The notes: generated by a model from the letters alone, not told the origin. A DNA stretch of 64,000 bases from an uncultured Methanosarcinaceae archaeon (GCA_963833425.1 CAWHXP010000003.1:160001-224000); one strand, 5' to 3'; shown: positions 11,203 through 18,385, numbered from the stretch's first letter. Translations and numbers: made by a program.

Positions 11203-12030
11203 ATGAAGTAAATAAGTCTTGAAGCATGCATTTTTCAAGTTATGGATTCTCAGGACATTGTCGGAGGTACGGGTTTTGTCCTCAGTCCAAATTTAGTTGT
11301 AACTTACGCCCATGTTGTGAAAGACTGCAACACCGGAATAGGTGAATTATTAACTTATTCTTCTATCCTAAAAAAACCAGGTTGGAAGCAGAGATATTAC
11401 GTGATGGTTGGAACGAGGAGGAGATGTTGCTTTCCTACGATTGAATAATTTTTCTCTTCTTAATAACCATGTGGCTAAAAAGCTAGGAACATTAGGATCT
11501 ACAAATGAACTCCAACAGGGTTTTCACCTCTATGGCTATCCAGATATAAGAACAGATTTAAAGGGTACTTTGGGTAGGTCAGATCATAGGACAAGTTCAT
11601 AAAAAACTACTTAATGGGCAGCTATTAGGTCTTTTAGAGTTCTTTTCCGAAACTGAAATTAAGTTACTTCTGGGGTAATACGAGTACATAGGGAGGGAAT
11701 AAGAATTTTACCTTTAACTGGCAATTTGACACCAGTTGTTGGGCCGTTATTACGCACTTTAGAAAGTAATTCTGATCCGGGAACTGCAGTTTCGGTTACA
11801 TTTGATGGGAATTATGCTGTTTCAGATTCCGGTGACGACAAACTAAAGTTTGGGATCTTAAAACAGGAAATGAATACACACATTAAAAGGTCATTCTGAT
11901 CGAGTTTCATCAGTTTCCCTCACCTCCGATGGAAATTTGGCTGTCTCAGCTTCATGGGATAAAACGCTTAAAGTCTGGGATCTTAAAACAAGGGCAGAAG
12001 TCAGAACCTTAGCAGGTCATTTCAATTGTA
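11203..12030 (+). pseudogene. Trypsin-like peptidase - [internal deletion] - APAF1-like helical linker - WD40 repeat protein (pseudogene)
   Basis: GGTGFVLSPNLVVTYAHVV (catalytic His), DVAFLRL (Asp), GYPD; then GQLLGLLEFFSETEIKLLL and ILPLTGNLTPVVGPLLRTLE; WD40 repeats such as LKGHSDRVSSVSLTSDGNLAVSASWDKTLKVWDLKT. Stop at codon 3 and several frameshifts. Confidence 0.75.
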
Positions 12031-12070
12031 GAAATGGTTTGAATTTTAAATTTTGTAGAGGATGTTAGTA

Positions 12071-12958
12071 ATGCCAAATCAACTGGAAGATGAGGATTGG
12101 GACCTCCTTCTTCGGAGAATCAAGGATAAAAAGTGTACTCCCTTTCTTTGGACCCGGAGCTTGTGCTGGAAAGATCCCTGTTGGTTCCCAGATTGCAAGT
12201 GAATGGGCAAAAAAGTATGACTACCCAATGGAAGACTCTGATGACTTGATAAAGGTGGCTCAGTTTGTGGCTGTGACCAAAGACGCTATGATTCCAAAGG
12301 AGGAGATGTGTAGAAAAATCAATGAACTGTTAAAAAAGTCCCACAAAAATACTTTGAAACTTCTGATGAACTTCATGGAGTGCTAGCCGATCTCCCATTG
12401 CCAGTTTATGTCACCACAAATTACGATGACCTTATGGTGCGAGCTCTTAAAAGCCGTGGCAAAACACCAATCCAGGAAATATGTCGGTGGAATGAATACT
12501 TCAAGCGACGCAAACCAACGTCAGACTATGTTCCTACTCCAGAAAAACCTTTAATATATCACCTCCATGGCTGCTATGAAATGCCAGAGTCGCTGGTTCT
12601 AACAGAGGACTACTATCTGGACTTCCTTGTTGCCACCTCAATGAAACAAAACCTGCTTCCTCCGCGTATTCAGAAGGCATTTACAGATTCATCTCTTCTT
12701 TTTCTAGGCTACAGGATAGCTGATTTGGGTTCCCAAGTTCTTTTCCGGATTCTTGCTGAATACTTAGAAATAGGTGATAGAATGCACTATTCCATGCAGC
12801 TTGTGACAGAGAATGTTCATGAGGCAAAAGAAGAAAGAGCTCAGAAATATCTGGATCGCTATTTTGAGGAGTCTAATATCAAGGTACACTGACACGATTG
12901 CCGTGAATTTGCCGTAGAATTGAGAAAACTATGGGAGGCTTTCAATCGTGGTCCTTGA
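12071..12958 (+). pseudogene. Stand-alone SIR2-like (SIR2_2) NADase (pseudogene)
   Basis: MPNQLEDEDWDLLLRRIKDKKCTPFL/GPGAC, VYVTTNYDDL, IYHLHG, LVLTEDYY, LLFLGY. Frameshifts near 12148 and 12340-12380, premature TGA at 12890-12892, natural stop at 12956-12958. Confidence 0.85.
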
Positions 12959-14090
12959 ATTCCAGGCTTACGTGGGCCCTCTACCTTTTGAAGAGAAACA
13001 TAAAGCCATTTTTTTCGGGAGACCGTGAAGCTCGAGATCTCCGGTCCTTAGTCATTGCGCATCGTTTGGTTCTCGTCTATGCCCAGCCGGGTGCAGGTAA
13101 GACTTCACTTATCACTGCAGGGCTTATTTATCTCCTGAAAGAAAAACAGTTTGAAGTTCTCCTTGTGGCGAGAGTTAAAGGCACACTTTTTGGAAATATA
13201 AAATCTGAAGAGATCTCAAACATATTTGTCTTTAATACTCTTACAAGCTTGGCTAAAGATGAGCATGATGTTGAGCGCCTTGCTAAAATTAAACTTGTTG
13301 AGTTTATGAAAGAACAGAAGCATATGCATGATGACAATGGTATGGCATTACTCCATGTCATCATCTTCGATCAGTTTGAGGAAATATTCACTTCGTATCA
13401 AGACCGCTGGAAAGATAGAGAGGAATTCTTTGAGCAAGTAAACATTGCTCTGGAAGCAGATCCCCTTTTAAGGGTAGTTTTTGTCATAAGGGAGGATTTC
13501 ATATCTCAGCTAGATCCTTATGAAGATCATCTACCCGAAAAAATGTGGTTGAGTTATCACATAGAGCGCCTGCGCCGTAATGCTGCCCTGCAAGCAATCG
13601 AAAGGCCATTGAGAGATACTAGTCGCTCTTTTGCGGAAGGCGTGGCAAAAAAAACTTGTCGATGATTTGCTGGAGAGTCGAGTTGAGACAATGAACGGCG
13701 AGATCGCTGAGATAACAGGAGAATTCATAGAAGCTGTGCAACTTCAGGTAGTATGCAAGAACATCTGGCGGGATTTACCATTAAATGAAAAACTAATCAC
13801 GTTTCAGCATCTGAAAAAATATGGTAATTTTTAAGAGGTACTTTACAGGTTTTACGAAGAGGCTATAAAGGCAGCGGTAGAGGAGACAGGCATTGATGAG
13901 TAGAGCCTGCGCAGATTTTGCAATGAAAAGTTAATAACGAAAATAAGGATGCGGGGGACGGAGTACCGGGCTCCAGAGTTCACTTGTGGTATTTCCAATC
14001 CAGCTATTGACGTTCTTGAAAGCAGGCACCTTATTAGAGCAGAGTCGCGGGCAAATGCGCTCTGGTATGAACTGGCACACGACATTATAC
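12948..14090 (+). pseudogene. nSTAND1-family P-loop NTPase (pseudogene, sensor domain absent)
   Basis: GTG 12948: QAYVGPLPFEEKHKAIFFGR/DREA; YAQPGAGKTSL (Walker A); IIFDQFEEIFT (Walker B); VVFVIREDF; VQLQVVC; WYELAHD. Two frameshifts, TAA at 13832, TAG at 13901. Confidence 0.85.
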
Positions 14091-14245: not shown

Positions 14246-14540
14246 CAACATTATGAAGGAAAAATTATCTCATTAAATGTAAGATGGTACCTAAAATATT
14301 CATTGAGCTATAAAAATTTAGAGGAGATGATGGCAGAAAGAGGAATAAAAGTTGATCACACTACTATAATTAGATGGGTACATCGATATTCTTCTGAGAT
14401 GGAAAAGAAGGTGCTTAGACATTTAAAGCCAACTAATGACTCTTGGAGAGTGGACGAAACCTGCATCAAAGTAAAAGGTGAATGAAAATATCTTTATCGT
14501 GCAGTTGATTCAGCTGGGAATACAGTTGAATTTATGCTAA
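14246..14540 (+). mobile_element. IS6-family transposase fragment
   Basis: VRWYLKYSLSYKNLEEMMAERGIKVDHTTIIRWVH...SWRVDETCIKVKGE*KYLYRAVDS; no TIRs seen. Confidence 0.85.
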
Positions 14541-14664
14541 GGAATTGTAACGAAATAACTTAAGTAATCAATTATTCTGTTTGAAGAAAATCGGTTAAGA
14601 CATCCATAAAAACGGTTAGGTACATTGCAAAAATTGACTTAAGGTATTTCGCGGCAAGCACTAA

Positions 14665-14788
14665 GATCCTATCCGAAAAGTCTGTAATGCATGTTGAGAA
14701 GTCACAATAGGTTTATAATATCCGGCCCCGGTTTTGCATATTGCATATCGTAAAAGTTATAGCAGGTAACTACTTTTTGGATAGGCTC
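14665..14788. mobile_element. 124-bp MITE with TAA target duplication
   Basis: TIRs GATCCTATCCGAAAAGT and ACTTTTTGGATAGGCTC; TAA at 14662-14664 and 14789-14791. Confidence 0.7.
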
Positions 14789-14849
14789 TAAAATGTAATT
14801 TTAAACCATAATGTTTAATGTACTTAAATTTAAAGCTTTTTTTATTTCA

Positions 14850-17253: not shown

Positions 17254-18385
17254 GAGGATTTCGATAAACTTCGGATTTTATTTCTTAGCAGTAATTTCTC
17301 AGATCTTCCCCTCAATTTCTCTATTTAATCCCTCTTTTTGGCTCTACTATTCTCAATTCTTTGATTTTAAAGATAGCTTCCGCTATCTTCAATATACTTT
17401 TTTTATTTCCAATGTCCTCAATTGATGGAGATTATAACAAAAAGCCGTACACAACATTTTTAGATTTACTCTTTTAACAGTAGTAACAAAAACTCTTCCT
17501 GCTTTGAAAATTTCTTTCGTTACTGAATAAACTCTTTCCCCTGGGACTCTTTTTGAGCTAATTCTCTTATTTCTTAATATATCCTTTATTCCCAACGTAT
17601 GTCCTTTGACCGCTCTTTTCATTGTTATATTATACCCTTTCGTTTTTGCTCCAAAGTATCCTCTGTCCTTATAAACCACTTCATTTTCCTCTGTCAAATC
17701 TACATACGAATCATGTACTGACGCAGTTGTTGTTTGAATCTTCTGATCAGCTCATAATCTCTGTCTATTATATTATGAAGCTTATATCCAAAGTGAGACT
17801 TACCTCCCTTCTTTGTCCAGGTTCCGTCTCTGTTTCTTCTTGTTTTTGCCTCATCTCTCTGCTTTTGCATGTCATGGATCTGAATGGATAAAAGTAACAT
17901 CCTGAATCAGTCCATGCTTTATCTGGAAACCCAGAGTATCAAGTTGGCTTTGCAACTTTTCCCATATTTTCTTTGAAATGCTCGATAATTCTCTCCCTAA
18001 ATAGCCATACAGTAGTACTGTAAGGTATGTATTCCGGAAATCCAAGGAATTTCCTAAAAGAAATTCGATCTATACACTGTTTGTCAAGTTCAAAATCAGA
18101 GAGCACATGCCATTGTTGTAAAACAAGCATTTTGAACATCACAATGACATCAGTTTCGGATCTCCCTCCTGAAACGGTTTTGTTAATATACATAGACTCA
18201 AGAATAATACGAAACGCTTTCCAATCAATTCATGAATAAATTTCAGCAAGCTTACCTCCAACAGATTCAAGACGTTTATACTCTTCTTTAAGAGCAAAAT
18301 CAGTAAGAGTTTTCATGAATATACATAAATATTGACAAATTTAAAGTCAACCATGCTCATGAGCATGGAGTTTATCGAAATTCTC
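17254..18385 (-). mobile_element. IS5-family element (IS5 subgroup), transposase frameshifted
   Basis: TIRs GAGGATTTCGATAAACT / AGTTTATCGAAATTCTC; 4-bp TSD TGTA (17250-17253, 18386-18389); fragments MFKMLVLQQWH.LSD, DGTWTKKGGKSHFGYKLH, VYKDRGY. Confidence 0.92.

Follow-up and report, generated by a model that had tools for sequence, protein, structure and literature searches.

A decayed SIR2-nSTAND1 gene pair in a Methanosarcinaceae genome and its two-gene relatives in archaea and bacteria

To our knowledge, Avs proteins generally carry their effector in cis, and the prokaryotic STAND or NLR-like defenses that have been characterized (Avs, bNACHT) each consist of one cytosolic protein that binds a phage protein within the cell. 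In Thoeris, the ThsA protein includes a SLOG domain and acts together with a TIR-domain partner, ThsB. The name nSTAND1 comes from PMC8195603 (Kaur, Iyer, Burroughs and Aravind, eLife 2021), where TIR, caspase, trypsin and similar effectors are linked through bDLD3 or EAD adaptor domains. In PMC10907252, nSTAND1 sensors with FGE/CLec domains are described, along with a trypsin effector that is coupled in trans via EAD8. In the neighborhood tables of PMC8195603 (supplement file 1), none of the eight mentions of SIR2 was an adjacent SIR2-nSTAND1 pair, and the accessible part of PMC7159879 mentions neither SIR2 nor sirtuins. Neither the full-text literature searches nor these tables yielded an account of a stand-alone SIR2 gene coupled to nSTAND1.

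Such a pair is present, in decayed form, in the window, i.e. the whole 64,000-nt stretch of DNA that was analyzed, from an uncultured Methanosarcinaceae archaeon (GCA_963833425.1, CAWHXP010000003.1:160001-224000). It is best explained, with a probability of about 0.75, as a decayed, non-functional copy of a widespread archaeal and bacterial two-gene SIR2 + nSTAND1 module. Lesions were placed by alignment to L022, which of all fetched loci has the most similar intact pair (85% nucleotide identity). The features are listed below.

12071..12958, plus strand: SIR2_2 pseudogene (ThsA/KomC-like, predicted NADase), beginning with the ATG at 12071 and closing with the restored stop at 12956-12958
12890..12892, plus strand: nonsense codon TGA in SIR2 (TGG>TGA; Trp in relatives), from the L022 alignment
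12948..12958, plus strand: stop/start overlap of 11 nt, from the GTG start of nSTAND1 through the last base of the SIR2 stop codon, read from the sequence
12948..14088, plus strand: nSTAND1 NTPase pseudogene, ending after the winged-helix part (YELAHD), from Pfam and the L022 alignment
13832..13834, plus strand: nonsense codon TAA in nSTAND1 (Glu in L022), from the L022 alignment
13901..13903, plus strand: nonsense codon TAG in nSTAND1 (Lys in L022), from the L022 alignment
14247..14541, plus strand: fragment of a highly repeated insertion sequence, 295 nt, located 160 nt downstream of the break

When read through, the SIR2 pseudogene comprises about 295 codons. In the six-frame translation, it starts at the ATG at 12071, passes through three frame segments and ends in "...WEAFNRGP" and the stop at 12956-12958; the tail reads "...KVH", a stop, HDCREFAVELRKLWEAFNRGP and the terminating stop. 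The preliminary description had called this stop "restored", which is apt: relative to L022, the gene carries frameshifts of +1 nt at 12147 and -1 nt at 12336 as well as the TGA at 12890, and there are in-frame 3-nt deletions at 12521 and 12779. The nSTAND1 gene opens with VVLEFQAYVGPLPFEEKHKAIFFGR from the GTG at 12948, in the next frame to the SIR2 tail. Given the positions of this GTG and of the SIR2 stop, the 11-nt overlap that had been described is real, and it was confirmed by the six-frame translation. Intact relatives begin at the same motif, which supports the earlier observation that this nSTAND1 has no N-terminal effector. Its frameshifts relative to L022 are -2 nt at 13019 and +1 nt at 13647. 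The reported end of homology soon after YELAHD was also borne out, in that the match to every relative ends at 14084-14088, immediately 3' of this motif. The window nSTAND1 thereby lacks its coiled coil, transmembrane segment and repeat sensor; intact relatives are ORFs of 860 and 1230 aa.

The open piece at 12380-12892 was assigned to SIR2_2 (PF13289) in Pfam, with an E-value of 4.3e-24 and 85.6 bits against a curated cut-off of 24.5. The active-site motifs TTNYD and HLHG are still legible in it (VTTNYDD and YHLHG). Across 36 relatives, H166, H168 and G169 were invariant, and N118 was at least 90% conserved; from the work on ThsA, we take the Asn of TTNYD and the His of HxHG to be the catalytic residues. 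The SIR2 profile was compared with the chains of solved structures, and it matched the ThsA-type chains 7uxt (4.8e-18) and 6lhx (5.6e-14), KomC (8zsf, 4.8e-11) and, weakly, DSR2. Judged by these matches, the SIR2 protein of the module is ThsA/KomC-like and a predicted NADase; an NADase activity and a role in defense would follow from homology.

The piece at 12931-13665 was assigned to nSTAND1 (PF20703; Pfam E-value 3.9e-23, 83.1 bits against a curated cut-off of 27.1). Both Walker motifs remain legible (AQPGAGKTS and IIFDQFEE), and seven positions (G49, G51, K52, D142, Q143, E145 and E146) were invariant in 33 relatives. An AF2 model of the first 420 residues of the NTPase had a pLDDT of 91.1. 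In VIA, this model was best aligned to archaeal Walker ATPases (2qen, Z 16.8) and to ORC/Cdc6 proteins, at Z 14-17 (ORC2, 14.5), and it also aligned to the NOD modules of the Avs5 filament (Z 13.5), NAIP/NLRC4 (13.1) and Avs3/Avs4 (11.6). Foldseek against the PDB yielded ORC/Cdc6 and AAA+ matches with TM-scores of 0.33-0.46 (query-normalized) or 0.28-0.53 (target-normalized); no Avs was among the Foldseek matches listed, the Avs/NLR NOD modules being listed by VIA only. The modeled NTPase thus has a predicted STAND-type fold (P-loop, helical domain, winged helix), without specific kinship to Avs. A search of PDB sequences with the NTPase profile gave no match at an E-value of 0.01, and the NTPase piece drew no PADLOC match of any kind, Avs models included; a full-length relative matched the HEAT-ARM model only, on its repeats. 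Because it matched neither PADLOC models nor the sequence of any solved structure, the NTPase does not appear to be an Avs. NCBIfam returned only sub-threshold matches for SIR2 and nSTAND1, and neither protein has a family in PADLOC or NCBIfam.

Species-representative genomes were scanned with the SIR2 alignment, and 349 loci were found; the module accordingly has at least 349 relatives among these genomes. Eighty loci were fetched, originating from Methanosarcinaceae, Methanoperedens, Planctomycetota, Chloroflexota, Acidobacteriota, Verrucomicrobiota, Pseudomonadota and others. The N-terminus of nSTAND1 (Y-x-G-P motif) was located 3' of SIR2 on the same strand in 76 of them. Two of the misses were SIR2-CHAT genes (L019 and L021, the latter cut by the contig end); in L065, an adjacent nSTAND1 match was missed by the motif pattern, and in L086 SIR2 itself was cut by the contig end. 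The start codon was forced to lie inside the SIR2 gene in 51 loci, as the only in-frame starts before the motif occur there; these overlaps were -11 in 27 loci, -4 in 11, -14 in 6, -8 in 5 and -1 in 2. For the other 25 loci, an overlapping or a later start was possible in 7, the start lay just past the stop in 9, a gap of more than 60 nt was present in 8, and one had no start codon. The overlaps occupy both alternative frames (-11, -14 and -8 versus -4 and -1), which fits termination-reinitiation and not a conserved recoding site. Within the host genome, the FN[RS]G[TP]-stop/GTG junction is kept in all three copies of the pair (including those on G000:C8 and G000:C20), and the same stop/start overlap persists as a remnant in the related Methanosarcina genome G024. 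The junction recurs, overlapping or abutting, across 76 of 80 related loci, which is far beyond chance. The preliminary description had named a single fused ORF in homologs as speaking against its split effector/sensor pair, and in none of the 80 fetched loci were SIR2 and nSTAND1 joined in this way; at the level of gene architecture, that pair holds as two separate, tightly coupled genes. The split into separate SIR2 and nSTAND1 genes is ancestral rather than an artifact of a frameshift.

The distribution of the pair is patchy, with a match in one other Methanosarcina species of the 24 searched. The nSTAND1 of that species is an intact 860-aa ORF that starts with MVPEFQAYVGPRPF and continues with a coiled coil, a hydrophobic segment and seven WD40 repeats. 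The gene upstream is a 507-aa SIR2_2+CHAT fusion, and a SIR2-tail remnant ("...YHEFSAELRTRWEVFNRGT" and a stop) lies right 5' of the nSTAND1 start, with the same overlap (G024; L012:8019-8172). In M. hadiensis (L015), the order is SIR2-CHAT, full SIR2, nSTAND1, and this locus is presumed to be intermediate between the plain-SIR2 and SIR2-CHAT arrangements. In L016, L017 and L020, the middle SIR2 has shrunk to a fragment of 63-94 residues that retains the same stop/start overlap before nSTAND1. Among the 120 matches listed for SIR2 homologs (278-888 aa), 86 had SIR2_2 alone (most of them 293-325 aa) and 34 had SIR2_2+CHAT. Two tandem SIR2 genes before one nSTAND1 were observed in L073, L075, L076, L079, L082 and L087, mostly from Pyrinomonadaceae and other Acidobacteriota. 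The 28 pattern matches on viral contigs included no relative; a relative was present in only two plasmid records, both of them very large replicons that carry no annotation at the matched position.

The C-terminal repeats or sensors that are absent from the window copy are present in relatives, between which they are swapped. The domain scan covers the first 58 of 66 scanned C-terminal parts (68 in all), in which WD40 was found in 27, TPR in 14, FGE-sulfatase in 2, CBM96 in 1, PPC in 1 and a weak FHIPEP match in 1; the 12 with none were mostly stubs cut by contig ends. A strongly hydrophobic 19-residue window, which is a simple hydropathy criterion for a transmembrane segment, follows the NTPase in 60 of 69 intact partners. 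Lys and Arg were richer on the N-terminal flank of this segment in 50 of 59 cases (poorer in 2, tied in 7), which fits a disposition with the ATPase inside and the C-terminus outside. The segment is absent from nine of the 69, including the M. hadiensis protein, so an outside-facing sensor is not universal. Since most partners have a transmembrane-like segment, the sensor that was lost from the window copy probably resided outside the cytoplasm.

Complex formation was modeled with 420 aa of the NTPase (33 aligned rows) and 298 aa of SIR2 (36 aligned rows). The ipSAE was 0.57 (0.56-0.58), compared to 0.02 for the best control; the verdict of the tool was "weak support", and this value falls in a band in which, by the tool's description, a prediction fails more often than it holds unless the pairing had been probable in advance. 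Of 157 solved complexes, 116 reached the mark of the tool, as did 2 of 215 mismatched pairs; only 18 of those solved complexes, but both mismatches, were at or below 0.60. Partner pLDDT was at least 79 in the runs, and at least 86% of contacts agreed. Because the gene linkage is strong, this prediction can be considered mildly supportive of binding between SIR2 and the NTPase. The recruitment of the NADase in trans that was proposed earlier is accordingly putative and draws on the gene linkage together with this weakly supported complex.

The proposed mechanism is as follows. Gene 1 would encode a stand-alone, ThsA/KomC-type SIR2 of about 297 aa, a predicted NADase, and gene 2 would encode an nSTAND1 ATPase that begins directly at Y-V-G-P-x-P-F...FFGR. 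Intact gene 2 products continue from the ATPase into a coiled coil, in most cases a single transmembrane segment, and an exchangeable WD40, TPR or FGE-type domain. The start of gene 2 inside or at the end of gene 1 points to translational coupling. The C-terminal domain would sense a cue, probably outside the cytoplasmic membrane; nucleotide binding would then lead the cytoplasmic STAND module to oligomerize and to bind or activate the separately made SIR2 subunit. The activated SIR2 would deplete NAD+, halting the infected or stressed cell. On this reasoning from homology, the intact family is probably an unnamed, widespread variant of STAND immunity. The window copy matters only as a record of loss; in intact modules, a separate NAD-depleting subunit would make the activation of a partner in trans by a STAND oligomer cleanly studiable.

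A more specific proposal is offered tentatively, and the odds are somewhat against it: in archaea and bacteria, the module might be an outside-in receptor, with a membrane NLR-like ATPase, an extracytoplasmic WD40/TPR/FGE sensor and a coupled ThsA-type SIR2 NADase inside. The cue would be encountered at the cell surface, e.g. a virus particle or an envelope insult, and if the sensor is outside the membrane, detection would occur before or at entry. The combination of an effector in trans and a sensor outside was not found in the literature searched for any characterized STAND defense system.

The role of the module could instead be unrelated to immunity, with SIR2 as a regulatory deacylase or ADP-ribosyltransferase under the control of the STAND ATPase, for instance in cell-cell or kin recognition or in programmed death in aggregate-forming organisms. 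The probable outward orientation of the sensors and the lack of relatives on viral contigs would suit such a role. PMC7159879, moreover, describes nSTAND1 conflict systems as concentrated in multicellular or social prokaryotes and gives Methanosarcina as one of the few archaea that have them. The nearest solved relatives of this SIR2, however, are NAD-consuming defense effectors (ThsA, KomC and DSR2), and the patchy distribution, the swapped sensors and the three decayed copies form a pattern that is typical of defense genes. A non-immune role is thus considered unlikely, and a defensive, NAD-depleting module is preferred.

In total, the window pair has sustained four frameshifts, three nonsense substitutions and the loss of everything past YELAHD. 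Both genes are, by their sequence, pseudogenes and constitute a predicted non-functional copy, so nothing in the window copy would be expected to work. Of the four frameshifts, those at 12147 (+1 T) and 13647 (+1 A) are located in homopolymer runs and could be assembly errors; the pseudogene assignment stands without them, as the three nonsense substitutions and the truncation are independent of these runs. The pair belongs to a decayed island with IS fragments at about 6.1 to 19.3 kb, between intact housekeeping genes. Directly upstream of SIR2, a fragment of a trypsin-like peptidase was noted on the plus strand at 11242-11448 (a weak Trypsin_2 match), and WD40-repeat fragments occupy 11937-12068 on the same strand, just 5' of SIR2; the fragments between 11242 and 12068 are probably the wreck of another conflict-type gene. 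Elsewhere in the island, fragments of a DUF772-type transposase lie on the minus strand at 17389-18193 (PF05598, E-value 2.8e-15 for 17939-18193).

The sensor repeats were said in the preliminary description to have been lost near an IS6 fragment. The loss stands, since relatives have WD40, TPR or FGE domains; the fragment itself starts 160 nt past the break, so the IS is a putative cause. An IS-linked deletion of the sensor region is plausible. The 14247-14541 fragment has at least 40 copies in the same genome at 80-89% identity (from 135 first-look candidates), and these copies match this stretch only. An ORF within it (14303-14485) matched DDE_Tnp_IS66 weakly, under the Pfam cut-off. Positions 14655-14789 share 82% identity with sequence that lies about 0.9 kb past nSTAND1 genes in a related Methanosarcinaceae genome (L026:5570-5711 and L033:3701-3842), which suggests synteny of the far flank and a deletion of the missing ~3 kb.

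The genome (4.07 Mb in 21 contigs, 80% complete by marker genes) belongs to Methanosarcina, judging by the sources of the closest protein and locus matches. It contains two further broken pairs, on C8 at about 432.6-434.0 kb and on C20 at about 60.0-61.1 kb, both with internal stop codons and with C-terminal deletions that differ between them. Frameshifts, nonsense codons and, in each copy, its own deletion of the sensor have inactivated all three copies in this IS-rich genome. At least 40 IS copies, together with 80% completeness in only 21 contigs, suggest IS expansion and gene decay in the lineage. The first gene of the C20 copy (L014:4576-5229) is chimeric, with TIR_2 (E-value 2.2e-10) in frame with the C-terminal half of SIR2. 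Among 65 database matches, both parts were found in the protein itself only, and a stand-alone 154-aa TIR protein was 65% identical to the front of the chimera, which is treated as a lineage-specific rearrangement.

That the pair is intact in the organism, the frameshifts being assembly errors, is very improbable. The two homopolymer insertions could be accommodated by this explanation, as could a genome that is 80% complete yet has just 21 contigs. It does not account for the three stop-creating substitutions, the 2-nt deletion at 13019, the end of homology at 14084-14088 or the absence of the sensor. Moreover, the two paralogous copies are broken in other ways, and general assembly noise is not the source of the breaks, because long housekeeping ORFs on both sides of the island are unbroken (SecDF, a deaminase, an aconitase-family protein and cobalamin genes). 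A decayed copy of a two-gene module is the better account.

Also rejected, as scarcely credible, was a single fused, Avs5-like gene, either split by frameshift here or joined by programmed frameshifting in the overlap: 13 of 16 matches among longer proteins do have SIR2_2 and nSTAND1 in one chain, one of them (P0132) in operon order, yet no single ORF occurs in any of the 76 loci, the overlaps are in two frames, and in four of the five fused proteins that were read, the NTPase precedes a C-terminal SIR2; the fifth, P0132, is a singleton on a 6-kb contig, and its SIR2 tail seems out of frame. The 13 fused chains argue for a functional link between SIR2_2 and nSTAND1, not for the window pair as a split fusion.

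As far as the literature search, PADLOC and NCBIfam reach, the pair looks like an undescribed module, and three known systems offer the nearest comparisons. The nSTAND1 counter-invader systems, as described in PMC8195603, share with it the NTPase clade (PF20703), variable sensors that include FGE/C-lectin-type domains, and NAD+-targeting effectors. Those systems use adaptors, whereas Pfam shows no adaptor domain on either protein here: no extra domain was found, nSTAND1 starts at its core motif, and SIR2 closes with its canonical tail, although a short, unmodeled adaptor may be present.

Avs5 (AVAST type 5; EfAvs5, PDB 9jap and 9nc9) is similar in its combination of a SIR2 NADase-type effector, a STAND NTPase and a C-terminal sensor, and the NOD modules can be aligned structurally (Z 13.5 and 11.4). 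In Avs5, however, the effector forms the N-terminal part of a single cytosolic protein, whereas here it is a separate, overlapping gene, and most partners in the module have a transmembrane-like segment. The Avs trait of an effector within the NTPase polypeptide is likewise absent, the intact relative consisting of two genes. Among solved chains, the SIR2 profile reaches no Avs5 chain at an E-value of 0.001, and the NTPase has neither a PADLOC nor a solved-chain match.

The effector itself most resembles those of Thoeris and Kongming: ThsA (6lhx, 8bto, 7uxt) and KomC (8zsf) are the closest solved SIR2 proteins by sequence (E-values 5e-18 to 5e-11), and their alignments include the TTNYD and HxHG motifs. 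Unlike in Thoeris, the SIR2 considered here stands alone, with no second Pfam domain, and its partner gene is nSTAND1; its activator would be a protein partner, not a nucleotide signal.
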